Assembly: GCF_000981785.2 (NCBI RefSeq) | Contig: NZ_CP011304.1 | Coordinates: forward strand, 1,950,001 to 1,982,000 | Length of the DNA stretch: 32,000 bases | DNA from: Microcystis aeruginosa NIES-2549 | Lineage (GTDB): Bacteria > Cyanobacteriota > Cyanobacteriia > Cyanobacteriales > Microcystaceae | Direction of reading: 5' to 3' | Shown: in pieces, positions 9,722 to 31,637 of the stretch | Numbering within the stretch: the stretch's first letter is position 1 | Layout: each line of letters opens with the position of its first letter | The notes under the pieces: model-generated | What the model was told of the DNA's origin: nothing | What the model saw: only the letters and a program-made list of their open reading frames with translations | Database searches by the model: none | Made by a program: the position numbers and the translations under genes

Positions 9722-9794
9722 GGGGGTTTAGCTCAGTTGGTAGAGCGCCTGCTTTGCAAGCAGGATGTCAGCGGTTCGAGTCCGCTAACCTCCA
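9722..9794 (+). tRNA. tRNA-Ala (anticodon UGC)
   Basis: Cloverleaf read by eye. Acceptor GGGGGTT/AACCTCC, D arm GCTC-AGTTGGTA-GAGC, anticodon arm CCTGC-TTTGCAA-GCAGG, T arm GCGGTTCGAGTCCGC. No CCA is encoded. Confidence 0.95.
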
Positions 9795-10401: not shown

Positions 10402-11397
10402 TTAATTAAGTTTTCGATTGAACGAGAATGAATTAGTTGATGCTTGCTCAACATCTAACCAAGACTCGATTACAGAATTAACCACAGCAGCTACGCAGGA
10501 AATCGCTACACTATTACCCGTTAATTTTCGCATAGTTTGATAACTGCCGACAATTTGATAATCATCAGGAAAACCTTGTAAACGTAGCATTTCTCTTTCT
10601 GTTAAGCGTCTTTTCCCATCCACTAACAAATAATTATAGGATGCTCCTGCTCGCAAGGCACAGGAATAGGGATAAGCACTGACATTACCTCCTTTATTTT
10701 CGTGCCAGATAGTCGGTTCACTATAAGGTTTTTTTCCCTCTCTTTTCAGCAGGCGACTTTTTTGAATTTTTTCGGAAGCATAATAAAAATCCGAAACATT
10801 TTCCTCTAAGATTTCTGTTAAACTTGTTCTAGATAAAGCTGGTTTTGGCCAGATAAAATCTCTCGCTTCTCGGAAACCAACGATAAAAATCCGTTCCCGT
10901 TTTTGCGGTAAACCAAAATTAAGAGCATTTAAAACCCGATAATCGGTATAGTAATCTAAATCTTGCAGAGTATCGAGAATAACTTCTAAGGTTTTTCCCT
11001 GTTGATGTCCCTGCAATTGCTTGACATTTTCCAGAATAAATGCTGCGGGTTGTTTGGCTTTTAAAATGCGAGCAATCTCAAAAAATAGCGTGCCTCTGGT
11101 ATCGTCAAATCCCTTTAAATCACCACAAATACTAAAGGGTTGACAGGGAAATCCCGCCATTAAAATATCGTGATTGGGAATATCTAGGGCAGCAATTTCG
11201 GTAATATCTCCCCGGGGGTGGTCGTTAAAATTAGCCTGATAAATTGACCGAGCATCTTTATCTATATCACAGGAAAAAACACAATCAGATTCTAAGTTTT
11301 TTTGGCGACAAACTTGTTCAATTGCCAATCGAAACCCTCCCAAACCACAAAAGAGGTCAATAAAACGGATTTTTTTACTATCTTTCAGGAGATTCAT
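10402..11397 (-). CDS. dcm: DNA (cytosine-5)-methyltransferase, apparently solitary
   Basis: m5C MTase motifs: I FIDLFCGLGGF, IV GFPCQPFS, VI ENV, VIII QKRERIFIVG, X GNSVAI. The track start at 11451 is TTG, so I use the ATG at 11397 (MNLLKDSKKIRFIDLF). Confidence 0.9.
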   Translation of the reverse strand: MNLLKDSKKIRFIDLFCGLGGFRLAIEQVCRQKNLESDCVFSCDIDKDARSIYQANFNDHPRGDITEIAALDIPNHDILMAGFPCQPFSICGDLKGFDDTRGTLFFEIARILKAKQPAAFILENVKQLQGHQQGKTLEVILDTLQDLDYYTDYRVLNALNFGLPQKRERIFIVGFREARDFIWPKPALSRTSLTEILEENVSDFYYASEKIQKSRLLKREGKKPYSEPTIWHENKGGNVSAYPYSCALRAGASYNYLLVDGKRRLTEREMLRLQGFPDDYQIVGSYQTMRKLTGNSVAISCVAAVVNSVIESWLDVEQASTNSFSFNRKLN

Positions 11398-11443
11398 CGA
11401 TAGTTGAGATTGTGGTGATAGGGATATTCTCTTTGATTTTAAC

Positions 11444-11608
11444 TTATTCAACTTTCACCAAAGAGCGGACGGTAAATATTTCATTGGCTTGTAGGGGTTT
11501 AATCGCCGAAATTGGCACAGTAACTACTGAAATTGACTCACCGAGAGCGTTAAAAACCTCTAAAATTGCTCCCATTTCGCCATTGCTAGGATGGGGGATT
11601 AAATCCAC
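11444..11608 (-). pseudogene. Truncated DUF4926 paralogue (C-terminal half only)
   Basis: My own translation gives VDLIPHPSNGEMGAILEVFNALGESISVVTVPISAIKPLQ. This aligns with RPEGHEDGYVLEVLNNQGKAYTVIAVEVSKIESIQ of the adjacent gene. Only GTG (11608) or an internal ATG (11575) is available as a start. Confidence 0.45.
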
Positions 11609-11622
11609 TAAGAATAACAGAA

Positions 11623-11859
11623 TTATATAATTTGCAATTCATCCTGTTTAAGATTTTGAATCGATTCAATCTTGGAAACTTCTACAGCGATAACTGTATA
11701 GGCTTTTCCCTGATTATTTAACACTTCTAAAACATAGCCATCCTCGTGGCCTTCGGGTCTAGGACAATAATCCACGATAATCGCGTGAGTGCCACGAGAC
11801 AAATTAGATTCTGGCAAATCTTCAGTTAATTGAACTTCGGAAAACATATCAAATTTCAT
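11623..11859 (-). CDS. DUF4926-like small protein
   Basis: 78 aa. The pattern VQLTEDLPE..L.RGTHAIIVD....YVLEV.N..G.TY.V..V matches my memory of DUF4926. It lies 12 nt downstream of the DUF6883-like gene. Confidence 0.6.
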   Translation of the reverse strand: MKFDMFSEVQLTEDLPESNLSRGTHAIIVDYCPRPEGHEDGYVLEVLNNQGKAYTVIAVEVSKIESIQNLKQDELQII

Positions 11860-11871
11860 AGTCTAACTCTT

Positions 11872-12192
11872 TTAATCTGGTAATAAAGTCACAAATCTTG
11901 TTTCTTTCGTAAGTGAGTCGATAATCCAATAGGTAGAGACTCGTAAGTTTATCCCGTTCACCCCTTGTAAAAGTCCTTTAATTTCATAAATATCACCGAA
12001 CTTTGTTGGTTTATTTAAGGTGGCCTCGTTGAGAAGAATACGTCTTAAATCTTGTTCCAATACCTGCCAGTTGTCTAAATTATATCCCGCTTGTGCCAGA
12101 AAGCCTGATTTATCATCTTTGGGTTGTAAAACTAGCAAATACTGGGTTAATTTAGCTGGTGGGATTGTCGCATTGGGATTTAAATAAGGCAT
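11872..12192 (-). CDS. DUF6883-like protein (usual partner of DUF4926)
   Basis: 106 aa. The N-terminal KLTQYLLV.....DKSGFLAQAGY pattern matches my memory of DUF6883. Operonic with 11623..11859. Confidence 0.55.
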   Translation of the reverse strand: MPYLNPNATIPPAKLTQYLLVLQPKDDKSGFLAQAGYNLDNWQVLEQDLRRILLNEATLNKPTKFGDIYEIKGLLQGVNGINLRVSTYWIIDSLTKETRFVTLLPD

Positions 12193-12241
12193 TTATATTG
12201 TAATTTAGCCAATTTCTTTATAGACTTCTATAAAATAGATT

Positions 12242-12436
12242 TTACAGTATATACGGGCAGTATTGCCAGGCTTTTTCTTTGTCTAGGATTTGATCATTTT
12301 CAACTTCTTCGATGAGTTTTCCTAGTCCGTAATCCTCTAGGATTTCTTCGATTTTTTCAAATTCAGCAATGGGAATCTGAACAGCAATCGGCTTTTGATC
12401 TTTGTCTAATACATAGCTTTTGTTAATTTCTAGCAT
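12242..12436 (-). CDS. Small acidic antitoxin-like protein (hypothetical)
   Basis: 64 aa. A beta-strand-like N-terminus (YVLDKDQKPIAVQIPIAEFEKI) is followed by an acidic helix. Its ATG overlaps the stop of the upstream ORF (ATGCTAG). Confidence 0.45.
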   Translation of the reverse strand: MLEINKSYVLDKDQKPIAVQIPIAEFEKIEEILEDYGLGKLIEEVENDQILDKEKAWQYCPYIL

Positions 12437-12630
12437 TTGTTTCTCTCAATAGTATCATTTTCGCTATTTTTTGTCATGTTTTGGGCGGTATTTAACCGAA
12501 CTAATTTTCTACCACTTTTCCCTTGTCTCTCCCTCCAATCGGCGCAAATCGCTTTTATATCGTAGTTGAAAGACTTGGCGTGTTCTTCTCTAATCTTATG
12601 AATTTCTTCGAGTATTTCATCTTCCCACAT
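12430..12630 (-). CDS. Small conserved hypothetical protein (TA-associated type)
   Basis: 66 aa. WEDEILEEIHKIREEHAKSFNYDIKAI resembles a recurrent small cyanobacterial family. It lies between a PIN-like remnant and the 64-aa ORF with near-zero spacing. Confidence 0.45.
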   Translation of the reverse strand: MWEDEILEEIHKIREEHAKSFNYDIKAICADWRERQGKSGRKLVRLNTAQNMTKNSENDTIERNKC

Positions 12631-12633
12631 AGC

Positions 12634-12807
12634 TCATTCTCCCATTAACTCGTAAGGTGTACAGATTAGCGGTAATTTGTAGCCGAAATCCGCGCATATA
12701 TTGAGAAGTTTTTTCTGAATTTGAGCATTAGTAATATGTTTACAGTTCCATGTTAACAGATAAAAGTTGCGGACAGGATAAAGATAGCGGTATCTTTCTG
12801 TTAGGTG
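12634..12807 (-). pseudogene. C-terminal remnant of a PIN-like toxin gene (no start codon)
   Basis: My own translation gives ..YLLTWNCKHITNAQIQKKLLNICADFGYKLPLICTPYELMGE*. The frame is open only from 12807, has no usable Met, and abuts the Y1 transposase gene. Confidence 0.35.
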
Positions 12808-12845
12808 TTATATTCTACAAGTCCTCGCGGGGAAAAATACGCAAA

Positions 12846-13637
12846 ATGTCACGAGCAAAACGAGAACTAATCCCAGGCTATTCCTATCATATAACCATTC
12901 GCTGTAATAACCGAGAATTTCGCCTGACCCGTCTAGAATGCCGACAGGTATTACTCTACGCTATCAAAAAAGCGATCGAAAAGTACGGATTCAAACTCTA
13001 CGCGCTCTGTGTGATGAGTAACCATATTCACTATCTCATCGAACCGAAAGACGCGGAAGACTTACCCAAAATTATGCACTGGTTGAACTGGTACACCGCC
13101 ATGTGTTTTAACCGAATGCTGAATCGAACTGGTCACTTCTGGGAAAAACGCTATCACAGTAGCGGTTTTCCCACCACGGATACTAAGCGAGCGCTGAATA
13201 CCCTACGCTATATTCACGCCAATCCGAAGGCTGCGGGAGTCCAAGTCGGATTCTTCTACGATTTTAGCGATTACGGGGTCTATGACCGACTCGGAGACGA
13301 TGGCTTAACCACTTGGCATCCTGCGTTTTTGAGTCTGGGAGAAACCCTAGAGGAATGGGCGGCCAAATATCGCGGATTCTGCAAGAAATACCGGCCGCGA
13401 CCGAAACCGGAAACCCGCAACCACTGGGGAAGTAAGCTACTCGCGGGGATAAAGCCGAAGAAAAGGTCTAAAAAATCCTCTCCGGGCCAATTGTCTCTCT
13501 GGTGGGAGGAGTGGGAGGAAGTCACCCCAGAAATTCTCGCGGTGGCGGATCAGTTCGTTTTTGCCAACGCCTACAACCCCCGCGTCGCCGGAGACATACT
13601 ACAATCATGTCGCGGATCGGACCCGGGGCCTGGGTGA
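12846..13637 (+). CDS. IS200-like / REP-associated tyrosine (Y1, HUH) transposase
   Basis: YHITIRCNNREF, the HUH motif in MSNHIHYLIE, and the catalytic Tyr region LRYIHANPKAAG. I use the ATG at 12846 (MSRAKRELIPGYSYH). The 3' end overlaps the convergent ORF 13571..15175. Confidence 0.8.
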   Translation: MSRAKRELIPGYSYHITIRCNNREFRLTRLECRQVLLYAIKKAIEKYGFKLYALCVMSNHIHYLIEPKDAEDLPKIMHWLNWYTAMCFNRMLNRTGHFWEKRYHSSGFPTTDTKRALNTLRYIHANPKAAGVQVGFFYDFSDYGVYDRLGDDGLTTWHPAFLSLGETLEEWAAKYRGFCKKYRPRPKPETRNHWGSKLLAGIKPKKRSKKSSPGQLSLWWEEWEEVTPEILAVADQFVFANAYNPRVAGDILQSCRGSDPGPG

Positions 13638-15175
13638 GGTACATCGAAAACCCAGAAGAAATACAAAAACCCCCGACCCAAAAACCCATACCAAAACCCA
13701 AACAAAACACCCGAACCCCGACGTACACCCAAAAAACCAAAAACAGAACCCCGACGTACACCCAAAAAACCAGAGGGTCCAGGGAGGTGTCCTAGGGGTG
13801 CTTTTAGGTCAAAAGTAACATCCCTGTAGTATATCCAGCTATTATTCACTCGCCAGCCTACCCTATCTCCGAAAGCGTTCCAAACTCTTTCATTATACTC
13901 CCCCGTCCCACCGAGTTCGCAGTAGATTTTCGCCTGCACGGAAAAACCAAAGCGACCGCCACTATATTTAACCCATAATTGGTCAATGGTTCGCAAATCC
14001 TCGTAGGGGAAATTATCCATATCCTCTACCTGTAGCCATCCTTCTTTTGTGCGATTTACCTGTAGCATCACGACTCTTGTTTCCTCGTCCGCTTCCCTCC
14101 ATTGCTGCCGTTTTAATAAATCTTCTAAGTTCCGATAATCGATTCCTTTGGCGCTTTTAAGTTCGATTTCTGGCGGTGGTGCGGGTTTCGGGGTTTCTGT
14201 TATCGTTTTCGCCGACTCACCATTTATCGGTTCCGTTTTAGGGGACGGTGGGACGGGTTGTTGTGCTAGTTTCAGGGTAATCCGGTCATAAACTTTTAAA
14301 ACCTTCGGATTCGTGGGGTCTAAGGCTAATACTCGCCTCATTAACTGTTTTGCTTCTTCTAGTCTCCCGTCACCTTCTAAATCTAACGCTTCCTCTCGCA
14401 GTAACGCGATATCGGTGATAGTTGCTTGTTTCGGTAACAGAATCAGATGATTCTTGTAGTTTGGTTCGACGGTGGAGTGGGGAGTCTGCGGGGGTTTGTT
14501 GTATTGTCGGTTGATTTCCGGAACTCGATGGAATAGATGATTACAAAGTCTCTCCACCGTCGCGCAATTCCTTTCCCCCTCAATTCGCAAAGCCTCCAGA
14601 AGCGCGTAGGTAAACGAACTCATTCCCAAAGCGGGAATTTGATAGGATTCTTCCCCCGGACTACAGGAAGCGATGGTAATCACTCCCTGTTGGGGTTTTC
14701 CTCCCGCGGATTTATTGCCGAATCGCGTCTCGTTCCGGCAAGAGTCCAACAACAGAATGATATTATCCGCGCCGCATTTGCGTAAGCGTTGGGTGAGATA
14801 GGTGAGAGAAATGGTGGTATCTGGGAGCAATTGGGAGTGTCCATCGTGGGGAACGAGGTAATCCTGTTCCTGATGTCGTAATCCGTGGCCGCTGAAGAAA
14901 AACCAGAAGTTATCCCCCGTCTCCAACTGCGGGGACTCGAAAAATTCATGGAGGAAGATTTTTAAATTTGTGGCGGTGGGTTTCGTTTCTAGAAAAGTAC
15001 CGCTAGGCGTTTTAATGGAGTCAGAATCATCGGTAAAGAGGAAAACTTCGTCAAACTTGGCTTCTTCTTTACAATAGCGAAACATAGCCTTCGCGTCTTC
15101 GATGGCGCAATCTAGCTTGTTAAAGTGTCCCTGTTTATAGGCTGTAATGCCGATGATAAATGCCCAGTTCGCCAT
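13571..15175 (-). CDS. Orthocaspase (peptidase C14-like) - TPR - GUN4-domain fusion protein
   Basis: Caspase dyad contexts FFFSGHG and LLLDSCRN. A TPR-like helix pair (LEEAKQLMRRVLALDPTNPKV) and a Pro-rich linker. GUN4-like IDQLWVKYSGGRFGFSVQAKIY..VGWR..APLGHLP. The last ~70 codons are encoded by repeat DNA and overlap the transposase, so the 3' end is uncertain. Confidence 0.8.
   Translation of the reverse strand: MANWAFIIGITAYKQGHFNKLDCAIEDAKAMFRYCKEEAKFDEVFLFTDDSDSIKTPSGTFLETKPTATNLKIFLHEFFESPQLETGDNFWFFFSGHGLRHQEQDYLVPHDGHSQLLPDTTISLTYLTQRLRKCGADNIILLLDSCRNETRFGNKSAGGKPQQGVITIASCSPGEESYQIPALGMSSFTYALLEALRIEGERNCATVERLCNHLFHRVPEINRQYNKPPQTPHSTVEPNYKNHLILLPKQATITDIALLREEALDLEGDGRLEEAKQLMRRVLALDPTNPKVLKVYDRITLKLAQQPVPPSPKTEPINGESAKTITETPKPAPPPEIELKSAKGIDYRNLEDLLKRQQWREADEETRVVMLQVNRTKEGWLQVEDMDNFPYEDLRTIDQLWVKYSGGRFGFSVQAKIYCELGGTGEYNERVWNAFGDRVGWRVNNSWIYYRDVTFDLKAPLGHLPGPSGFLGVRRGSVFGFLGVRRGSGVLFGFWYGFLGRGFLYFFWVFDVPHPGPGSDPRHDCSMSPATRGL
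13713..13778. repeat. Two tandem 33-bp units inside an A/C-rich low-complexity tract
   Basis: gaaccccgacgtacacccaaaaaacca occurs at 13713 and again at 13746. The surrounding 13640..13780 is built from aaaaccc-like motifs. Confidence 0.85.
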
Positions 15176-15582
15176 TAGTCCGCAGTCGGTGTGTTTTTCT
15201 CGTCTCGCTTGAATTTTAGGGTTAATCCGCCTTTGGTGCCGGTCTTAATCCCCGTCCCTAACAATTTTACTTCACCCTCCCCGGTAATCTCTACGCAAAG
15301 CTCTACTTCATCGAGTTTAAAACCGGTTTGTTGGTTGACCTGTTTCTGTGCTTGATTGAAGACTTTGCCGATAAGCTGGAGAAAATGGGAAAGTTCTGTC
15401 TCTAGCTTCTCTATGCTCACTTTTACGCCACGAGTCGCAGCTTCGGTGATAGTTTTCCTCGTGTCCCAGGGATTGCGATAGGTGTCGTTTCCTTTCGCAT
15501 CTTCATCGACGGTGACGGGGGTATCTTCTGCGGTGATAATCCAAATGGTTTCTTCTGGCATAGCGCTCTCGTTTTTCGGCAA
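15175..15582 (-). CDS. Trypco2-like (trypsin-co-occurring domain 2 / CU044_2847-like) small protein
   Basis: 135 aa. N-terminal beta segment (IWIITAEDTPVTVDED), a central helix, and a C-terminal FKLDEVELCVEITGEGEVKLLGTGIKTGTKGGLTLKFKR pattern. TTG start with AAGGAG 5 nt upstream (alternative ATG at 15561). Its stop overlaps the caspase ATG (TAATG). Confidence 0.6.
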   Translation of the reverse strand: MPKNESAMPEETIWIITAEDTPVTVDEDAKGNDTYRNPWDTRKTITEAATRGVKVSIEKLETELSHFLQLIGKVFNQAQKQVNQQTGFKLDEVELCVEITGEGEVKLLGTGIKTGTKGGLTLKFKRDEKNTPTAD

Positions 15583-15649
15583 TGGTTCTCCTTTATTATT
15601 CTAGTTACCCATTGCTAACTCACCTATAGAGATAGGGGTTAATAGTCCC

Positions 15650-15673
15650 AAAAAAGGGGGTTTAAATACCCCC
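15650..15673 (-). terminator. Rho-independent terminator downstream of argZ
   Basis: On the minus strand: GGGGGT-atttaa-ACCCCC hairpin followed by TTTTTT, about 36 nt after the argZ stop. Confidence 0.65.
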
Positions 15674-15708: not shown

Positions 15709-17820
15709 TTAAACCGTTTCTACCAAGGGACGGGTTAACTTATCCAACTGTTGGGTTAACAGACTCAGGAATAAACCCACATCGGTGACGATACCCACGG
15801 ATTCTACGGAACCTCGATCGCTTAATTTTGTCACCACGGCCGGGTTAATATCAACACAGACCATTTTCACCCCCGCCGGTGTCATATTGCCCACACCGAT
15901 GGAATGGAGCATACTAGAGAGCATGAGAATCATGTCTGCACCTTGAATTAAGCGGGAATATTCTTCCTGTGCTTTAATTAAATCCATCTCCGTATCCGGA
16001 AGCGGACCATCATCGCGAATTGAACCGGCCAAACTGAAGGGGACATTATTCTTGACGCATTCATACATTACGCCTTTTGTCAATACCCCGGCCGATACAG
16101 CTTTGGCGATGCTGCCGTGGCGACGGATGAGGTTGATAATCTTGAGGTGGTGACGATGGCCACCGCGCACGGGGATGCCTTTCTGCATATCCACCCCTAA
16201 AGAAGTACCCATGATCGCCTGTTCCATGTCGTGAACTGCGATCGCATTTCCCCCCAGTAAAGCGTGAACGTAACCATCGCGGATTAAACGGGAGAGATGT
16301 TGCGCTCCTCCAGTGTGAATGACCACGGGACCTGCCGTTACTACCACTTTACCGCCCTGGTCGCGAATTTGGCGCATTTCCCAGGCAATCTGCTCGACGG
16401 TTAACTCGACTCGGCGCTCGCTGGAAACCCCCGCACCCATAAAGGTAAATTCCTGGGTGCTGTTGCGTTGTTCCCTGGATTCCGCCTGTCGGATAGTACG
16501 GATGCCCTCAACTCCCACCATAACGCGATCGCCAGCTTTTAAATCCCGCAGCAGAGTACATTTCGCGGTTTTGCCTTCTGGACTTTCAGTGACGACGATG
16601 GCTGCATCCATGCGTTGATTTTCCACCCGCACCCATTCACAGTTAACCCGCACTTCCGTGGGATAGATGGTGCTGACATAAAAATCATCGGGAGCGACCC
16701 CATCTTGAGCGACAATGGCGGTATTGACATCACAGATTTCTTGGGGACGAGCGGCCGCACCGAGGTCGATCAATTGTACCATGATCTCCTCCATTACCTC
16801 GTGAGAGGGTGCAGAAACGCGCACTTCGGCCGAGGAGGTACTTTGGCGCTCAATCCCTAAAGTGAAGTTTAAAACCTTGAAGCTGCCCCCATTTCCCACC
16901 ACAACATCGAGAGCTTTATTCATAATTCCCGCGTCGAGCAGATGACCTTCTAACTGGAGAATGCGACTTTCAATGGTGACATTTGCGTGATGGTCTGGAA
17001 TTAGGGGTTCGGTGGTACGCAGGGTTAAACATTTAGCGGCTCCTCCTGCTTTTAAGAACTCCGTCAGGGGAGTTTGTACCACTTCAAATCCTTTTGCGGC
17101 TAAGTTATGTTGTAAATCGTCACTAATTTTATTCATGACGATTACTTGACCGATATTCACTGCATTACAAGCAAAGTTAACCGCATCGGCTTCTTCAACG
17201 ATAATGCGTTTTTCTTCGGGAATTTTTAACTCAATTAATCGATTAGAATAGGCATCAAAAGCATCAGGATAGTAGAGGAGATAACCGCCACTAAGGGGAC
17301 AAAAACAGGTATCAAGGTGATAGAAACGTTCATCGATTAAACGTAGGGATAAAACCTCGATATCGAGCCATTTAGCGATTAAAGGGTGGGAATCTAACTC
17401 GGTTCTGAAGCCATATCCTGCCCATAACCAACGTCCTTCCCGATCTAATAATGCGTCTCCTGCACCTTCAAAGGGTAAATCTTTTGGCAGTTCGTGAACT
17501 GTAAAACCGTTATCTTCAAACCACTGTTTAAAATAGGGTTCTTCTCCCTGTCTTTCTTTGTGTAAAAAGCGACTGAGAACGACAGTTTTTTCCAGAACTA
17601 AACCTGCATTAGCGGTAAAAACCATGTCGGGCCAGCCTTTTTCTGGTGGGACTAAATCCACAATCGCCCGATCTTTGAGAACATGATAAAGCTGCTGCCA
17701 TTGTTGCCTAGCTTTTTCCTGGGAAGATTTGTGAATGTTGCCCTCCATCCAAGGATTAATCACATAATCCACATCGTAATGATCGGGAGAACACATCAAA
17801 AAGCGAATGGTTTCAGTCAT
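15709..17820 (-). CDS. argZ: Bifunctional arginine dihydrolase / ornithine cyclodeaminase-like enzyme (ArgZ/AgrE type)
   Basis: About 703 aa. The N-terminal guanidino-group-modifying fold (MCSPDHYDVDYVINPWMEGN, final Cys in GGAAKCLT) is fused to a LOR/SDH-like C-terminal domain. That architecture is known for Synechocystis ArgZ and Anabaena AgrE. I use the ATG at 17820, because the track start is TTG. Confidence 0.8.
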   Translation of the reverse strand: MTETIRFLMCSPDHYDVDYVINPWMEGNIHKSSQEKARQQWQQLYHVLKDRAIVDLVPPEKGWPDMVFTANAGLVLEKTVVLSRFLHKERQGEEPYFKQWFEDNGFTVHELPKDLPFEGAGDALLDREGRWLWAGYGFRTELDSHPLIAKWLDIEVLSLRLIDERFYHLDTCFCPLSGGYLLYYPDAFDAYSNRLIELKIPEEKRIIVEEADAVNFACNAVNIGQVIVMNKISDDLQHNLAAKGFEVVQTPLTEFLKAGGAAKCLTLRTTEPLIPDHHANVTIESRILQLEGHLLDAGIMNKALDVVVGNGGSFKVLNFTLGIERQSTSSAEVRVSAPSHEVMEEIMVQLIDLGAAARPQEICDVNTAIVAQDGVAPDDFYVSTIYPTEVRVNCEWVRVENQRMDAAIVVTESPEGKTAKCTLLRDLKAGDRVMVGVEGIRTIRQAESREQRNSTQEFTFMGAGVSSERRVELTVEQIAWEMRQIRDQGGKVVVTAGPVVIHTGGAQHLSRLIRDGYVHALLGGNAIAVHDMEQAIMGTSLGVDMQKGIPVRGGHRHHLKIINLIRRHGSIAKAVSAGVLTKGVMYECVKNNVPFSLAGSIRDDGPLPDTEMDLIKAQEEYSRLIQGADMILMLSSMLHSIGVGNMTPAGVKMVCVDINPAVVTKLSDRGSVESVGIVTDVGLFLSLLTQQLDKLTRPLVETV

Positions 17821-17993
17821 ATTTTTTGACAATGAATATTCAGTATAAGTAGTCTGGAGATAAGTTTAGACCAATCTTCCATTATACTCCACTTTGCCCC
17901 GAAATGTCACTAGGTCTAAGATTAGGACAATTACCGCTCTACAAGCTAAAAACAGCCCAGTTTTAGCCGATAACTGACGGCTAGAAGCTTAAA

Positions 17994-19757
17994 TCATTGT
18001 AAATCCTGATGTTTAAATAACCCCATAAATTTCGATTTGCGTCCGTGTTCCTTAATTAAATTTTCCCGATAAGTTTGCCATTCTTCCCGTCTTCCTGACA
18101 TATAAAAGGCATTACGAGCTTTTTTTAGCCATTTAATCGCTTCTTCGTAGCGATCAGCCTTTTTTTCGTCGAGTATCTTTTCCGCAGGAGGACACGCGCG
18201 ATCGATCACCCAGTTAGGATCGACGGTAGCAGCCGCATCCATTATCCGCCAAATTAGGTGAGACTGCACATAGGAATTATCAGAAACGACTTTAATTGCA
18301 TCTCTAACTAAATTTTCGTGGAGAAATATATCGATTTTAGCCTCTGTGGAACGTCCACCGCTAAACTCGCGCAAGTAATCTAACAAGTCTAATTTTAAAT
18401 CGGGCCAATCTTCCCCCGCTAAAGACTCAATTTTTTGGTAATGGGAAAAGGAAGGTTGGTCTTGAAATGCCTTAATTCTAGCAGCCAAAGCTGTATCTAT
18501 ATCCCCTAAAGACTGCGCTAGTTCACTTGTCCAGAGAGCTAATTGATAATAATAATTCCCAGGGAAATTTAGACCACCCCTGGCAATTATTAGGGCGGAT
18601 TCTGGTGCGGATTCATCGCGTAAAGCTTTGGCAAAAAAGAAAGCTTCATCGTTTTTAGTTATCATATTTTTTGCCGCTGCCATCGCTTCGTCAATGCGAT
18701 CAAGATAGACTAACTTAGTTAGGTATTCTACCACTTGTCCTGAAGCTAAAGCTAGATTCAAATATTCCTGATCTTTTTCCTGCTGCTCGAAAATTTCTAA
18801 GCGAATAGAAGTTAATTTTTGGGCATAATGGGGGATATTCCCTGACCACATTTCTGAAAAATTAGCCGATTCTCCTCGTAAAATCTTCTCTAAAACAGGA
18901 TCGTCCCACCCCTGTTGTAAGGCTGCTAAACTCATCTCAAAATCGGCACTCCATTCATCTTGCCATTGCTCGATCTTTTCCATTAAATCTTGCTTTTTTT
19001 GGGGATTAAATTCTTTACTTAAAATTGCCTCAGTTAGAACTCGATCGATTCTAGCACTTAAATCATCATTGACAGCACCGTAATTTTCTAAATCATCCCA
19101 TTCCTCGATACAGGCGCTAATAATTGCTTCTAAAATAGCGATCGCATTATCTGGTTCTCCCTTTTGATAATAATCTTGGGCCTCATCCACCAGGGCATAA
19201 ATTTCATCAGAAATTGGATCTTCTTCGCAGTAATCTTCTTCGATCGCTCGTAGGGATTGCCGCAGTTCATTAAGGACAGTATTACGATAAGCTTTGACAT
19301 TAATAGTTATCTTTCCTACCGCTTTATTAACTGGGATAGCTGGAAATAAAAACTTATCAATTGTCTCGATAATTTCTGGGTGTTTAGCCACTAAATGATT
19401 AAGCAATTTTCTTAATTTACTTTCATCAATCGGTGTCAATAACTCCTCTAGGGAGGCTTTTTTAATAATTAATTCTGGTTGGCGAGAACAGGTTAATAAA
19501 ACCGCCACAATATGCTTACACCAACCCTCGTAATCGTAGGGACAGGAACAGGAGACATTCTCAAGATTTTCTTGGTTAAAATCGATAGCAACTCGATAGG
19601 GTTTAACCTCACTACCACTCACTAAAGCTTGCAGATTTTGCCCCCGTTGCCAAAGAGAAATAACTGCACCGCTATCGTAATAATATTGACCGCGCTGATA
19701 GGAAGCATTGGTGCTATTTTGCCGGATAATTTTTTCACTGATAGGAGGAATAGTCAT
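17994..19757 (-). CDS. SWIM zinc-finger protein with long helical C-terminal region
   Basis: SWIM signature CSCPYDYEGWCKHIVAVLL near the N-terminus. The remainder is helical-repeat-like. I use the ATG at 19757, because the track start at 19766 is TTG. Confidence 0.75.
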   Translation of the reverse strand: MTIPPISEKIIRQNSTNASYQRGQYYYDSGAVISLWQRGQNLQALVSGSEVKPYRVAIDFNQENLENVSCSCPYDYEGWCKHIVAVLLTCSRQPELIIKKASLEELLTPIDESKLRKLLNHLVAKHPEIIETIDKFLFPAIPVNKAVGKITINVKAYRNTVLNELRQSLRAIEEDYCEEDPISDEIYALVDEAQDYYQKGEPDNAIAILEAIISACIEEWDDLENYGAVNDDLSARIDRVLTEAILSKEFNPQKKQDLMEKIEQWQDEWSADFEMSLAALQQGWDDPVLEKILRGESANFSEMWSGNIPHYAQKLTSIRLEIFEQQEKDQEYLNLALASGQVVEYLTKLVYLDRIDEAMAAAKNMITKNDEAFFFAKALRDESAPESALIIARGGLNFPGNYYYQLALWTSELAQSLGDIDTALAARIKAFQDQPSFSHYQKIESLAGEDWPDLKLDLLDYLREFSGGRSTEAKIDIFLHENLVRDAIKVVSDNSYVQSHLIWRIMDAAATVDPNWVIDRACPPAEKILDEKKADRYEEAIKWLKKARNAFYMSGRREEWQTYRENLIKEHGRKSKFMGLFKHQDLQ

Positions 19758-19893
19758 AGTCAGCAAAGGAGAGGATTGGGTGATAAAATCTTGTCTGTGG
19801 CCAGAAAACTACCGGCAGCGAGGCGGACCACTGCATCAGCAACCGAGTCCACTTATCTTCAGTTTAGCCTAAATGTGCTATAGTAAAAACACT

Positions 19894-20167: not shown

Positions 20168-20860
20168 ATGAATGAGTCCTTATATAAATATCATCGGCAA
20201 AAATTAGAGCAGTTAATGGCAGAAATTGGCTGTAAAAACCTAGAAGAATTGAGTCGGTTATCGGGTCTATCTTCTTGGCAATTGCAGAGAGTTCGCCATG
20301 GTTTAATCGCCAAATTATCCTCTGAATCTTTGGTGAAATTAGCTAATGCGCTGCAGCTGCCAGTTAGCGATCTCCTCGCTCATTTTCAAATCCCGACGAT
20401 GGGGACAGAGGATCGTTCAGGGGAATTAAAAATTCTCGAACAAGAGTATCAAAATTTACAGCAACAATTAGACCAGCAAAAAGAAGAATTAGCCGCAGAA
20501 TTTCAACGTCAAAGCATCGAAGCGCTCGAATCTTGGTTAGTTCAATGGCCCACGGCCGAGGCCGTTGCCCGCAAAAATCCCGACCTAGCAGCCGTCAAAA
20601 TCCTCTCCCTAGTTAAACCGATTATGCAGTTACTGGAGCGCTGGGGAGTGCAACCAATTCACAGTGTCGGTGATCATGTCGGTTATGATCCGCAAATCCA
20701 TCAATTGATCGATGGTCAAGCGGAAATAGGTACACAAGTTCTAGTGCGTTATCGGGGCTATCGTCATGGGGAAAAACTACTTTATCGTGCTAGAGTGAGT
20801 TTAATTAAAGTAGAAATGCCGGAAATTCAACCAGTAGAAACAGAAAATGTCACCGCTTAA
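20168..20860 (+). CDS. HTH - coiled-coil - GrpE-like C-terminal domain protein
   Basis: N-terminal HTH-like segment (LEELSRLSGLSSWQLQRVRHG) and a coiled coil (LEQEYQNLQQQLDQQKEEL). The C-terminus GDHVGYDPQIHQL...VLVRYRGYRHGEKLLYRARVSL resembles the GrpE beta domain. Confidence 0.6.
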   Translation: MNESLYKYHRQKLEQLMAEIGCKNLEELSRLSGLSSWQLQRVRHGLIAKLSSESLVKLANALQLPVSDLLAHFQIPTMGTEDRSGELKILEQEYQNLQQQLDQQKEELAAEFQRQSIEALESWLVQWPTAEAVARKNPDLAAVKILSLVKPIMQLLERWGVQPIHSVGDHVGYDPQIHQLIDGQAEIGTQVLVRYRGYRHGEKLLYRARVSLIKVEMPEIQPVETENVTA

Positions 20861-29890: not shown

Positions 29891-31132
29891 CTAATTCTGT
29901 ACGCAAATATTGCATCTAGAATTAGCTTTGTACGCTTTGACCCGTACTGGGTTAACTACGAACCTCTCTATCGGATTCCCGCTAAAGGCGGCCTCTCCGA
30001 CTACCTTTCTTCCAATATTTAAGGAACCATTAATATCTGCTCCATAGAAATAACCCGACGAGCTTCTGAATAGTCCTCTTTTAATTCTCTTGCCTAAATA
30101 GCTTTTTTGCTTTTGAATAGACTCTAAGTCTAAGAAACTACATTTAGAGGTATAGCTTTCATTAGTTGTTTTGACCTCTATTCCTACTAAATTTGCTTTA
30201 TAGGTAAGTTGTTCGATAAACCTTGAATGAGGAATATTTACGAATGACTGGTTATTTCTATCTCCAATATTAATGTTTTGTTTCCAGCCTTGATTATGAC
30301 CAATAACTAAAAGGTTAATTTGATGAGCTAGTAATTTATCAATAATATATTTACTAGCGGTGTGGAGGTAATAATCCACCTGGCAATTACGCTTTAAAGT
30401 TAAACCTTGTATTCTTTTACTGGTCTTCTGTAGACTGGGTAATTCCGATTTGAGTTTAGCTAGTGTCTTGTTGTACTTTTGATTGCAGGATTTTAAGGCT
30501 TTTCCACATACTAAAGTTGGCTGAAATTCGGGAATATTAGAGGTAACAGCAGCTAGGTTATTTAAGCCTAAATCGATAAAAGCATATCTTTCTCCCTCTT
30601 GACTTGATGAGGATGGTTGTTCATAGACAATCTCTAAACAATAAGCACCCAATTTAGGAATAATCCTGACCTCTAAGACTTCCTTTAAATTAGTTTTAAA
30701 TTCTAAATTAGTCCCTGATAGCTTGATTAAACCTTGCTTCAACGCTTTTTTAGAAATGGCTTGATAGTTATAAGTTAAAACGTTTCTACCTTTTTCCTTG
30801 TCTTTGTATCTTGGCAACTTAGGCTCTCCTGTAAATTTATCTGGCGATTTTTTGTATTGTTCTTTCGCTTTTTGGTAGGATTTAAAGGTTTTTTCTACTT
30901 GCTTTAATACTAACTGACTTACTTTGGCGGGTAAGGCTTGATAATCTGGACTCATTTTTAAGGCATGATGTAACTCAGTCATTGTTAAAAATGGTTGATG
31001 TGAAAAGAAAACTTGACGGTTTAAATAAACAGCACAATTATACAGATTCTTCGATAAAAATCCTAATTTATCAATTACTGAATAATTTTTGTGATTAAAT
31101 TTAATTAGATGTTTTTGAACTAATTTCATCAT
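29891..31132 (-). CDS. tnpB: TnpB (OrfB) RNA-guided nuclease-family protein
   Basis: RuvC-like residues sit in FIDLGLNNLAA, TNESYTSKCS and GADINGSLNI. I use the ATG at 31132, because the track start at 31141 is TTG. It overlaps tnpA by about 30 nt. Confidence 0.9.
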   Translation of the reverse strand: MMKLVQKHLIKFNHKNYSVIDKLGFLSKNLYNCAVYLNRQVFFSHQPFLTMTELHHALKMSPDYQALPAKVSQLVLKQVEKTFKSYQKAKEQYKKSPDKFTGEPKLPRYKDKEKGRNVLTYNYQAISKKALKQGLIKLSGTNLEFKTNLKEVLEVRIIPKLGAYCLEIVYEQPSSSSQEGERYAFIDLGLNNLAAVTSNIPEFQPTLVCGKALKSCNQKYNKTLAKLKSELPSLQKTSKRIQGLTLKRNCQVDYYLHTASKYIIDKLLAHQINLLVIGHNQGWKQNINIGDRNNQSFVNIPHSRFIEQLTYKANLVGIEVKTTNESYTSKCSFLDLESIQKQKSYLGKRIKRGLFRSSSGYFYGADINGSLNIGRKVVGEAAFSGNPIERFVVNPVRVKAYKANSRCNICVQN

Positions 31133-31637
31133 TCTCCTCAAGGCATTTAATTAAACATTCTGTCTTTCTATTTCGTTGTCTTAATGAGTATAATCGAGCG
31201 CAAAATGAGGTAATTATGCTCACGAAGTCTTGCCTTAAATCGTCTTTTCTTTCTTCTGCTAGATTAACGACCTCTATATCTCTATTTGTTTGACTTAAAA
31301 GAACTTTCAGATAATTAAACCCTACTCTGCTTAAACGATCTTTATGTTCTACGACAATCAAATTATCATCAGTTTGTTCTAGAAGTTTTAATAATAGCTT
31401 TCGATGATCATTGACTCCACTTCCTACTTCTTTAACTACTCGAACAATTTGATAGCCTTTCGCAATACAATAAGCTTCCAATCTTTTTGCCTGAGTCTCT
31501 AAGTTAGATTGATTTTCTGAACTAGAAACTCGCGCATAAATAGCTACTTTATTTTCACCGCAAGAACGGTCATCTTCAAAAATAATAATTGTTCCTGTAG
31601 GAAGACGTTCTCCTTGTAACTGCCCTCGATTCCACAT
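31101..31637 (-). CDS. tnpA: IS607-family serine recombinase TnpA
   Basis: Catalytic motif VAIYARVSSSENQ. An in-frame MerR-like HTH segment (IKLSDYAKKKGISYDTAWR) continues upstream to 31694 but has ATA where an ATG is expected. Confidence 0.85.
   Translation of the reverse strand: MWNRGQLQGERLPTGTIIIFEDDRSCGENKVAIYARVSSSENQSNLETQAKRLEAYCIAKGYQIVRVVKEVGSGVNDHRKLLLKLLEQTDDNLIVVEHKDRLSRVGFNYLKVLLSQTNRDIEVVNLAEERKDDLRQDFVSIITSFCARLYSLRQRNRKTECLIKCLEENDEISSKTSN

Follow-up and report, generated by a model that had tools for sequence, protein, structure and literature searches.

Few protease-effector pairs in bacteria are as abundant as Pepco-protease modules, and the studied version of the class is the serine-protease form of Streptomyces only (PMC12642450). 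In this system, SsPepco-SsAvs4 of Streptomyces subrutilus, the neighbouring protease activates Pepco by removing its C-terminal tail (Evans et al. 2025, bioRxiv, PMC12642450). Pepco is handled there as one group with Trypco1 and Trypco2, which are likewise small proteins encoded beside peptidases in conflict systems, but form separate Pfam families and were defined beside trypsin-like peptidases, not caspases (Kaur et al. 2020, PMC7159879). A related logic is found in bacterial gasdermins, where an adjacent caspase-like protease trims off a short inhibitory peptide at the C-terminus and thereby releases a membrane pore (Johnson et al. 2022, as summarised in PMC12642450); gasdermins have, however, no sequence or fold relationship to Pepco and, according to that summary, oligomerise once they have been cut, while Pepco reportedly assembles beforehand. 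On the protease side, the closest described proteins are the orthocaspases MaOC3 and MaOC5 of Microcystis aeruginosa PCC 7806, which come from the same species group as the locus treated here and have the same p20 plus GUN4 architecture, and FGE-sulfatase/GUN4 domain swapping has been noted among Microcystis orthocaspases (PMC5756287; Jiang et al. 2010, PMC2853523); mosaic alleles were also observed in the present comparison. The available portions of both papers treat the protease alone and make no mention of an upstream Pepco gene.

The DNA under study is a window of 32,000 nucleotides from M. aeruginosa NIES-2549 (contig NZ_CP011304.1, positions 1,950,001 to 1,982,000), which contains a pair of overlapping genes.

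15175..15582, minus strand: Pepco gene, 135 aa from a TTG start at 15582..15580
15593..15588, minus strand: Shine-Dalgarno sequence AAGGAG with a 5-nt spacer to the TTG start, read from the sequence
15177..15173, minus strand: TAATG stop/start overlap, base 15175 being common to the Pepco TAA and the caspase ATG (translational coupling)
13571..15175, minus strand: caspase-GUN4 ORF, 534 aa, with caspase domain, TPR-like unit, Pro-rich linker and GUN4-like domain

This pair is a further example of the recently described Pepco-protease suicide/anti-virus module class; its unusual features are the putative sensor, a GUN4-like domain, and the fact that the end of this domain is lost in the present strain. 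The start signals and the TAATG overlap reported in a first-pass annotation of the DNA were confirmed, with the addition of an alternative Pepco start, an in-frame ATG at codon 8 (15561..15559) giving 128 aa. Many Pepco homologs (MSEETIWI...) begin at the position of this ATG, so that TTG and ATG are both candidates for the real start.

The first-pass annotation had assigned the small protein to the trypco2 family. In a Pfam profile search, the protein was identified as Pepco (PF24393; 111.2 bits, E 4.7e-32, curated cut-off 27 bits), the match being full-length (residues 13-126 to profile positions 1-112 of 112) and no other Pfam family lying above its cut-off at E<=1. PF24393 was present in all 80 Pepco homologs and also in the 28 aligned ones, 19 of which showed weak similarity to Trypco1, while none matched Trypco2 in an HMM search. 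An NCBIfam scan at E<=1 yielded a single match, a chance fumarate hydratase, and no Trypco2/CU044_2847-type family. The trypco2 assignment thus had to be given up; the wider placement of the protein among the peptidase-co-occurring small proteins of the Aravind group was borne out.

The AF2 monomer model of Pepco, of moderate confidence (pLDDT 65), reproduces the layout described at first reading, comprising a strand (12-17), a disordered segment (20-49), a second strand (51-56), a helix (57-85) and a subsequent Gly-rich strand set (92-125); a structure search with this model returned no significant match. The helix is amphipathic, its moment being reached by 0 of 2000 shuffles. The protein shares with SsPepco this order of an amphipathic helix and subsequent beta strands, the short, charged, Pro-containing C-terminal tail past the conserved domain and the position of its gene immediately upstream of a protease-sensor fusion. 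By analogy with SsPepco-SsAvs4, the protein is predicted to be a latent beta-barrel pore-forming effector, and the two systems would share a protease-activated pore logic.

The pairing is conserved. A caspase gene lies directly downstream of Pepco in 64 of 80 genomic Pepco loci, across cyanobacteria, and in 57 of these 64 the caspase ATG lies -1 to +10 nt from the Pepco stop. Likewise, Pepco was found directly upstream of all three caspase-GUN4 genes checked (Okeania, Microcoleus, Gloeothece PCC 7424). The C-terminal domain is swappable in sister loci (FGE-sulfatase, WD40, COP23, EAD1-CHAT or GUN4), which matches the picture of proteases fused to diverse sensors drawn for Pepco systems (PMC12642450). 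The proposal of a conserved, translationally coupled conflict or cell-death-type module built on a caspase-family protease stands.

Within the protein encoded by the second gene, the following elements were located.

14426..15175, minus strand: orthocaspase domain (Peptidase C14, p20-type), residues 1-250, Pfam match
14885-14887, minus strand: codon of His97, within FFFSGHG
14738-14740, minus strand: codon of Cys146, within LLLDSCRN
14261..14419, minus strand: helical TPR-like unit, residues 253-305, sub-threshold TPR_2 match
14165..14260, minus strand: Pro-rich linker, residues 306-337, from the sequence; disordered in a homolog model
13778..14164, minus strand: GUN4-like paralog-type domain up to LGHLP, residues 338-466, Pfam GUN4 match

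The Peptidase_C14 match covers residues 3-228 (E 9e-21, 75 bits, cut-off 21.4). Both caspase contexts singled out at first reading hold, His97 and Cys146 being invariant in homolog alignments and the dyad intact in the window. The Pro-rich linker and the GUN4-like domain of the proposed architecture stand; the TPR-like unit is seen below threshold, as a single TPR_2 unit at residues 258-289 (Pfam, E 4e-4, 20.7 bits, cut-off 27); in the homolog P0087 as modelled with AF2, the whole TPR-like region consists of three helices. The linker is predicted to be disordered, with pLDDT <50 at 309-333 in a close homolog modelled with AF2.

In the public annotation, the identical protein (M. aeruginosa NIES-2549, P0082) begins at Met31 and carries the name 'serine/threonine kinase', a fact that had escaped the first-pass annotation. 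The full-length start (MANW...) is backed by homologs, a Pfam search found no kinase domain in the protein, and the gene is mis-annotated in the public record. The PADLOC system PD-T4-6 (Ser/Thr kinase) was rejected as a candidate, the PDLC04062 match covering only model positions 300-437, that is, the GUN4 part; overall, the PADLOC scan of the module gave generic matches only, and PADLOC has no Pepco model.

A homolog with 94% identity, modelled with AF2, matched MALT1 paracaspase and metacaspases in a Foldseek search (E 5e-12). MALT1 and metacaspases are Arg/Lys-specific. As a measure of an acidic S1 pocket, the combination of two Asp, one Ser and one Cys of TbMC2 and AtMC9 was used. Asp27, which aligns with the pocket Asp of AtMC9, is conserved, and so are Ser95 and Asp144, which precede the catalytic His and Cys, respectively, by two residues, at sites that we take to be equivalent to those of Ser156 and Asp211 in TbMC2. 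The pocket Cys (Cys29 in AtMC9) is Ala24 throughout this family, whereas the characterised MaOC1, which has no extra domain, possesses a complete specificity pocket; mutation of the pocket Cys lowers AtMC9 activity by ~90% (PMC5756287).

The end of Pepco provides a putative target for such a protease.

15178..15207, minus strand: codon of Arg126 (end of LKFKR, predicted P1) and 9-aa tail DEKNTPTAD; residue 126 is the last one covered by the Pfam Pepco model

In an unbiased HMMER scan, R or K occupied the position equivalent to Arg126 in 125 of 135 Pepco family representatives (93%), and the tails beyond this basic residue were mostly 1-8 aa long. The window tail is 44% charged, contains one Pro and, with its 9 aa, compares with just 3-4 aa in most relatives. 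Cleavage after a basic P1 residue is the preference of orthocaspases and metacaspases and is expected for MaOC1, MaOC3 and MaOC5 (Klemencic & Funk 2017, PMC5756287); the conserved LKFKR with its short tail fits this specificity, and we infer that the caspase cuts Pepco at this site.

Our preferred reading, to which we assign a probability of roughly 0.65, is that the pair constitutes a cyanobacterial Pepco-orthocaspase module, i.e., a proteolysis-gated cell-death or defence system. The analysis establishes the family membership of all domains, the intact dyad, the conserved tight coupling, the exchange of C-terminal domains and the conserved basic residue at the end of Pepco. Owing to translational coupling, Pepco would be made alongside the protease and would pre-assemble as an inert oligomeric beta-barrel, while the orthocaspase would be held inactive until the GUN4-like domain, via the TPR-like unit and the flexible linker, meets a signal. 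The activated protease, with Arg or Lys expected at P1, would then cut Pepco after residue 126 and free the charged tail, and the cut barrel would turn into a membrane-permeabilising pore by which the cell is killed or arrested. That Pepco forms a barrel, that its tail is cleaved and that the truncated protein is toxic has been described only for Streptomyces Pepco with the trypsin-type Avs4, where Pepco is the death effector and protease substrate (PMC12642450), contrary to the initial suggestion that the small partner gates proteolysis. The statement that functional work was lacking no longer holds for the Pepco-protease class as a whole, and still does for the caspase-GUN4 variant.

The two systems also differ in that a trypsin-like Ser protease is replaced here by a caspase-family Cys protease, no STAND NTPase is present and the sensor is GUN4-like, and a cut at Ile97 with a tail of ~20 aa contrasts with the predicted Arg P1 and the 9-aa tail. 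The cleavage of SsPepco after Ile by a serine protease with loss of such a long tail counts against a Pepco-orthocaspase module, as do the Ala in place of the S1-pocket Cys, the moderate Pepco model, the generic PADLOC matches, and the missing terminal GUN4-like helix and Cys391Tyr exchange of the window allele. Nor do we know of a phage-related trigger.

The GUN4-like domain presumably serves as the sensor. The GUN4 family (PF05419) matches residues 341-474 (E 9e-43, 146 bits, cut-off 29.2, profile positions 2-132 of 141), the PDB GUN4 structures 1z3x and 1y6i match at E ~1e-21, and a homolog model does so in Foldseek at E ~1e-8. This true homology to porphyrin-binding GUN4 is what makes gating by tetrapyrroles conceivable: the domain would bind porphyrin, Mg-porphyrin or bilin, switch the protease allosterically and tie pigment metabolism or photo-oxidative stress to death, differing from our preferred reading solely in the named trigger. 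Fusions of GUN4 with caspases, kinases, trypsin and TIR have been proposed as sensors of tetrapyrrole concentration (Kaur et al. 2020, PMC7159879). The homology to the GUN4 Mg-chelatase cofactor (Synechocystis sll0558; 1y6i, 4xkb) concerns, however, the core helices up to GHLP; the N-terminal helical domain is missing here, and the profile-to-PDB alignment ends at GHLP+3, short of the ligand site. Following GHLP, the window protein reads GPSGFL against LLNQLR in SynGUN4, and the LxNxLR motif is also missing from the intact homologs examined, which have a hypervariable Gly-rich loop (10-45 aa) there instead. With it, Arg214, 'absolutely essential' to porphyrin binding by SynGUN4 (PMC1084334), and Asn211, essential to bilin binding (PMC10156173), are missing, and GUN4 paralogs without the ligand motif have been proposed as non-binders of bilin (PMC10156173). 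To judge from its sequence, the domain is of the paralog type fused to effectors. Since these residues are missing and unrelated domains occur at the same position in sister modules, the 'porphyrin-linked' label given at first reading is unsupported; a porphyrin link of the protein is unproven, and we consider tetrapyrrole gating unlikely.

Past the variable loop, the paralog units end in a conserved C-terminal helix motif of the SRxxxC kind (LFSRVETC / SLASRLVKC / LSRRDL), which was found after 86 GHLP sites among the homologs examined and is kept in distant homologs and kinase-GUN4 proteins. In intact P0087, it forms a confident helix in the AF2 model (residues 486-503, pLDDT ~80). The terminal motif of intact homologs contains a near-invariant Arg, which might be the counterpart of SynGUN4 Arg214 and would then speak for a tetrapyrrole ligand after all.

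The Gly/Trp/Val-rich loop itself differs even between closely related strains. The domain may have been rebuilt as a diversified receptor whose loop detects an infection-specific tetrapyrrole-like or protein signal and fires the caspase and, in turn, the Pepco pore, a scenario we hold to be quite improbable. Cyanophages encode bilin-synthesis enzymes, and the resulting bilins would be a candidate signal; phage interference with pigment synthesis would be another. Stand-alone Pepco-GUN4 fusions exist (P0207, P0221) and would in that case represent a single-chain form, the toxin being capped by GUN4 itself, with the whole amounting to a pigment-pathway-linked abortive-infection or bloom-collapse switch in Microcystis.

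At its 3' end, the caspase-GUN4 ORF runs into a RAYT-like transposase gene.

13571..13777, minus strand: non-native C-terminal extension, residues 467-534; Gly/Phe-rich stretch, then antisense read-through into the RAYT 3' end
13706..13771, no strand: 33-nt tandem duplication in the Gly/Phe-rich stretch after LGHLP, by repeat detection
12780..13650, plus strand: RAYT-like Y1 transposase cassette, by Pfam Y1_Tnp and synteny break
12750..13637, plus strand: RAYT-like ORF, likely start Met33 (12846), convergent with the caspase-GUN4 gene

The first-pass annotation had not recognised that these ~68 residues are not the native C-terminus. The transposase is identified by Y1_Tnp (Pfam, E 3.5e-20), with NCBIfam REP_Tyr_transpos below its cut-off (E 1e-19), and the duplication by two exact 26-mers against 0 expected by chance. 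The cassette stands in place of the native caspase-GUN4 3' end and two small downstream genes of Microcystis sp. BLCC-F210; synteny with the loci L001, L002 and L004 is broken at it, and its right-hand junction lies somewhere within 13638-13776. The terminal motif ...LFSRVETCKM, with which four other Microcystis alleles end, is missing from the window ORF. The domain has lost its terminal helix via a rearrangement beside the RAYT-like gene, so that the module in this strain may be inactive or wrongly regulated. On this basis, the allele could be decaying or disarmed, the system having been inactivated or uncoupled by the helix loss and being kept by inertia. The modelled helix and its conservation in distant homologs and kinase-GUN4 proteins point in this direction, together with a unique change to Tyr of Cys391 in the near-invariant FPC motif. 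Both ORFs are nevertheless otherwise intact, with only 3 of 153 conserved columns deviating uniquely, the catalytic residues and coupling signals are preserved, Pepco shares 97% identity with a cluster that is widely sampled (367 member sequences), and the same allele was found in 89 collected sequences. Decay is a possibility to be taken seriously, even if we would not bet on it.

The immediate upstream neighbour of the pair is the housekeeping gene argZ, and the gap between them contains a further element.

15656..15673, minus strand: terminator-like hairpin in the argZ/Pepco gap, by consensus scan only

The adjacency might indicate that caspase-GUN4 is a regulatory or housekeeping protease, e.g., of pigment or arginine metabolism, with Pepco as a non-toxic cofactor, chaperone or inhibitor. 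Gun4 has been linked to arginine-metabolism enzymes in Synechocystis (PMC10783636), and possible non-death roles are stressed in the orthocaspase literature (PMC7517822). The hairpin, however, suggests that the pair is transcribed separately from argZ, as a unit of its own; in M. ichthyoblabe, Okeania, Microcoleus and Gloeothece the pair is not next to argZ, and it travels as one unit amid toxin-antitoxin genes and variable DNA. In the studied system, moreover, toxicity depends on Pepco, and E. coli is killed by the truncated protein (PMC12642450). A role outside cell death is accordingly very improbable. Of the 'tRNA-linked island' proposed at first reading, what remains is a small patch downstream of the pair (C5 methylase, DUF6883, RelB-like antitoxin, RAYT) that varies between Microcystis strains; the tRNA link is weak, with tRNA-Ala 3.8 kb away, no integrase seen and argZ upstream.

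To our knowledge, no substrates are known for the cyanobacterial orthocaspases, which have been debated as cell-death proteases for 15 years. Under the preferred reading of a Pepco-orthocaspase module, the position of GUN4-, FGE- and WD40-bearing orthocaspases directly behind Pepco supplies them with a candidate substrate and a candidate death mechanism, namely cleavage at LKFKR followed by pore formation. Pepco as an orthocaspase substrate would bear on both bloom collapse and phage defence in Microcystis.

The locus is a GUN4-like-sensor variant of the Pepco-protease class, i.e., of predicted proteolysis-activated pore toxins. The first-pass annotation had read it as a Trypco2-like protein coupled to an orthocaspase-TPR-GUN4 fusion, with proteolysis possibly gated by tetrapyrrole status or by the small partner; the class of the module and the coupling stand, but not the naming as Trypco2, the supposed direction of control or the porphyrin link. 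The two coupled ORFs with their domains are confirmed, and the TTG start, the Shine-Dalgarno sequence and the TAATG overlap, in which base 15175 is common to the TAA of the small ORF and the ATG of the large ORF, are as that annotation described them:

13571-15175, minus strand, large ORF, 534 aa
15175-15582, minus strand, small ORF (Pepco), 135 aa, TTG start
15593-15588, minus strand, Shine-Dalgarno sequence AAGGAG, 5 nt 5' of the TTG
15673-15656, terminator-like hairpin between argZ and the small ORF

Codon 8 of the small ORF is an in-frame ATG at the same place as the start of many homologs, so that either the TTG or the ATG may serve as start. The public NIES-2549 entry for the identical large protein begins at Met31, so that the first strand of the caspase domain is lost, and carries the name "serine/threonine kinase"; a kinase domain is absent from the protein. 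Comparison with homologs supports the longer MANW... form as the probable start.

The small protein matches the Pfam family Pepco (PF24393) with 111 bits over the full model. Among 28 homologs, Pfam recognizes Pepco in all, Trypco1 weakly in 19 (best E 1e-5) and Trypco2 in none; together with the lack of a Pfam or NCBIfam match of the Trypco2 type for the small protein itself, this rules out the Trypco2 assignment. The anticipated layout of a strand, a helix and Gly-rich strands is borne out by the AlphaFold2 monomer (pLDDT 65), in which strand 12-17 and a stretch of disorder precede strand 51-56; a long helix covers residues 57-85, and Gly-rich strands continue as far as residue 125. Amphipathicity of this helix is strong, its moment being reached by 0 of 2000 shuffles; at the lengths of the beta-strands, their amphipathicity is not significant. 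A profile search of PDB sequences for a Pepco structure returned chance filamin matches only, and the best Foldseek match of the monomer to solved structures had E 0.66. Matches to the hairpins of staphylococcal beta-pore toxins were short and non-significant and give no evidence of relationship. Pepco also occurs as the C-terminal part of a 263-aa PIN_3-Pepco fusion (P0268).

In the large protein, Pfam places Peptidase_C14 at residues 3-228 (E 9e-21) and GUN4 at residues 341-474 (E 9e-43), with a sub-threshold TPR_2 unit at 258-289. Both catalytic contexts recognized earlier hold, as His97 (FFFSGHG) and Cys146 (LLLDSCRN) are invariant across three independent homolog alignments. The AlphaFold2 model of P0087, an intact homolog with 94% identity (mean pLDDT 79.5), comprises a caspase fold, three TPR-like helices, a disordered Pro-rich linker and a helical GUN4 domain, ending in a disordered stretch (470-489) and a confident terminal helix (486-503). 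By Foldseek, its N-terminal domain is closest to the MALT1 paracaspase and metacaspases (E 5e-12) and its C-terminal domain to GUN4 structures (E ~1e-8). In a profile alignment of the caspase family to AtMC9, the pocket Asp is kept as Asp27, and the pocket Cys is replaced by Ala24 throughout the family. Ser95 and Asp144 lie two residues N-terminal of the catalytic His and Cys, respectively, at positions which we take to be equivalent to those of the pocket Ser and the second Asp of TbMC2. Substitution of the pocket Cys is flagged as lowering activity in an orthocaspase study (PMC5756287), which also lists the caspase-GUN4 architecture for MaOC3 and MaOC5 of M. aeruginosa PCC 7806; caspase-GUN4 proteins were already catalogued in 2010 (PMC2853523).

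When one genome was scanned for each species, 237 places encoded Pepco; the 80 retained all lie in cyanobacterial records except one in a metagenome bin labelled "uncultured bacterium". The expected conservation of the gene pair is evident from a caspase gene downstream on the same strand in 64 of the 80 loci; 57 of these 64 have -1 to +10 nt between the Pepco stop and the ATG of the caspase gene, and 41 have 1 nt. At its C-terminus, the caspase protein carries an FGE-sulfatase domain in most Nostoc loci and a GUN4 domain in Microcystis, Oscillatoria, Iningainema (two copies), Waterburya and one uncultured genome; WD40, COP23 or EAD1 plus CHAT are found elsewhere. At one locus, the partner of Pepco is a CHAT-GUN4 protein. 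Viewed from the caspase-GUN4 side, Pepco is immediately upstream in Okeania, Microcoleus and Gloeothece PCC 7424 (3/3), where toxin-antitoxin genes are commonly nearby. The C-terminal modules are thus exchangeable on a constant Pepco-caspase core. Within Microcystis, the domains are mosaic among alleles: identity of the window protein is 99% in the caspase and 89% in the GUN4 domain to Microcystis sp. BLCC-F210, and 70% and 89%, respectively, to M. ichthyoblabe. Single-chain Pepco-GUN4 fusions are encoded at two further loci (P0207, 302 aa, L085 3418-4326; P0221, 280 aa, L087 531-1373), with GUN4 starting a few residues past the Pepco motif LKFKR and no adjacent protease gene; they could be caspase-deletion derivatives or could represent a separate design with GUN4 as a removable C-terminal part.

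Evans et al. (bioRxiv, November 2025, PMC12642450), who cite Nicastro et al. 2023 among their Pepco sources, give Trypco1 and Trypco2 as other names of Pepco; GUN4 goes unmentioned there. In Streptomyces subrutilus, Pepco forms denaturation-resistant 9-10-mer beta-barrels, requires an amphipathic helix, and is cut after Ile97 by the adjacent trypsin-like Avs4 with loss of a charged, Pro-rich C-terminal tail of ~2 kDa, and Pepco cut back exactly to this site kills E. coli (PMC12642450). The Streptomyces tail is much longer than those found here, which have mostly 1-8 residues among 135 HMMER-scan representatives. In the window protein, the Pfam model ends at Arg126, the final residue of LKFKR, and the tail beyond it (DEKNTPTAD) has nine residues, four of them charged and one Pro. 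The motif is present in 80/80 genome-scan loci, a partly circular count because the scan pattern itself contained it; in an independent set from a word-index search, its terminus agrees in 27 of 28 homologs. An exhaustive HMMER scan, likewise independent, yielded 1135 Pepco representatives at E<=1e-3; R or K occupies the position of Arg126 in 125 of 135 HMMER-scan representatives, with Lys just before it in 115. Since this basic residue is conserved and orthocaspases and metacaspases cut after Arg or Lys (PMC5756287), we infer that the caspase would cut Pepco after LKFKR.

Concerning the putative sensor, Kaur et al. 2020 described cyanobacterial fusions of GUN4 with caspases, kinases, trypsin and TIR and proposed fused GUN4 as a tetrapyrrole sensor (PMC7159879). 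In true GUN4, the residues past GHLP are LxNxLR, with Arg214 "absolutely essential" for porphyrin binding (PMC1084334) and Asn211 essential for bilin binding, and this motif is missing from GUN4 paralogs (PMC10156173). The domain in the window is paralog-type. At the LxNxLR position, the window protein and its intact relatives carry a Gly-rich loop of 10-45 residues (median 18), rich in Gly, Val and Trp (homologs P0081-P0200), of which 86 units of caspase- and kinase-fused GUN4-like domains show 70 different sequences; in the relatives, a conserved terminal motif (LFSRVETC, SLASRLVKC or LSRRDL) comes after the loop. Even from one Microcystis strain to another, the loop cannot be aligned (L001 7800-7900, L002, L003 and L004; alignment A4); in DNA, four other Microcystis alleles align through the GHLP codons, cannot be aligned for the next 60-80 nt and are identical in the last 33 nt. 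Origin from a DGR is unlikely, given that allele lengths differ and the coding strand is G/T-rich; no reverse transcriptase was found among the window ORFs scanned. The profile-to-PDB alignment ends at GHLP+3, short of the terminal motif, whose near-invariant Arg might correspond to Arg214 of Synechocystis GUN4; hence, the proposed porphyrin link, or bilin sensing, is possible but unsupported, with LxNxLR absent from the domain. A tblastn search for the GUN4 domain gave no phage match and hit cyanobacterial plasmids only. Membership of the large protein in PD-T4-6 was rejected, the PADLOC match being confined to the GUN4 part of the model. Positions 300-437 of the 450 of PDLC04062 ("PD-T4-6") are GUN4-like and matched by window residues 337-479; the model therefore flags any GUN4-domain protein and is likely to produce false PD-T4-6 calls among cyanobacteria.

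In the window strain, the terminus of the putative sensor is truncated: the ORF lacks the terminal motif and reads on in antisense over the 3' end of a RAYT-like (REP-associated tyrosine transposase) gene that converges on it.

12750-13637, plus strand, RAYT-like Y1 transposase gene, converging on the caspase-GUN4 gene with a 67-nt overlap
13706-13771, 33-nt tandem duplication within a Gly/Phe-rich stretch

This stretch of 47 residues resembles the post-GHLP loop in composition. Compared with BLCC-F210, ~1 kb with the RAYT-like gene replaces ~0.8 kb in which the gene has its native end, followed by two small genes, one apparently HicB-like. A BLAST break at 13777 was dismissed as the rearrangement junction; since nucleotides 13650-13776 are composed like the native hypervariable loop, a junction near 13640-13650 is probable. 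Searches of the window and the compared loci found neither inverted repeats nor REP-like copies at the cassette, and plasmids gave no near match. Unique deviations affect 3 of 153 conserved columns of the large protein, i.e., Cys391Tyr and two in the tail.

The window is largely housekeeping (carA, a SpoU methylase, argZ, an amine oxidase, a nucleotidyl transferase/phosphomutase fusion), with two tRNAs and nothing else by Rfam. A small variable patch lies between tRNA-Ala and the pair; besides the RAYT gene, it contains genes for a C5 DNA methylase, a DUF6883 protein and a RelB-like antitoxin. Coordinates of features in this patch and beyond it are:

9722-9794, tRNA-Ala
10402-11451, minus strand, C5 cytosine DNA methylase, apparently solitary
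11872-12192, minus strand, DUF6883 protein
12242-12436, minus strand, RelB-like antitoxin
12430-12630, minus strand, 66-aa ORF overlapping the RelB-like gene, no family match
15709-17832, minus strand, ArgZ-type arginine dihydrolase gene, directly upstream of the module
17994-19766, minus strand, SWIM zinc-finger protein, 590 aa
19873-20154, plus strand, small ParB_N-domain protein
20168-20860, plus strand, HTH_26 protein

For the genes at 10402-12630, neither a partner restriction enzyme nor a partner toxin was found. As the patch is small and its surroundings are mostly housekeeping, the suggested tRNA-linked island is only weakly supported; the pair is clearly at a recombination-prone spot. 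A 2023 paper links Gun4 to arginine-metabolism enzymes in Synechocystis (PMC10783636); the adjacency of argZ and the module is not conserved in other genera and is, thus, probably coincidence. Farther along, an IS605 OrfB/TnpB-like gene (Cas12f1-like TNB domain) overlaps a serine resolvase-type gene (29891-31637, minus strand), which is an IS607-like arrangement.

Several features go beyond the published accounts in their accessible parts: cyanobacterial orthocaspases are systematically linked to a Pepco gene upstream, LKFKR at the conserved end of Pepco is a candidate caspase site, the GUN4 ligand motif is replaced by a hypervariable loop, and stand-alone Pepco-GUN4 fusions exist.
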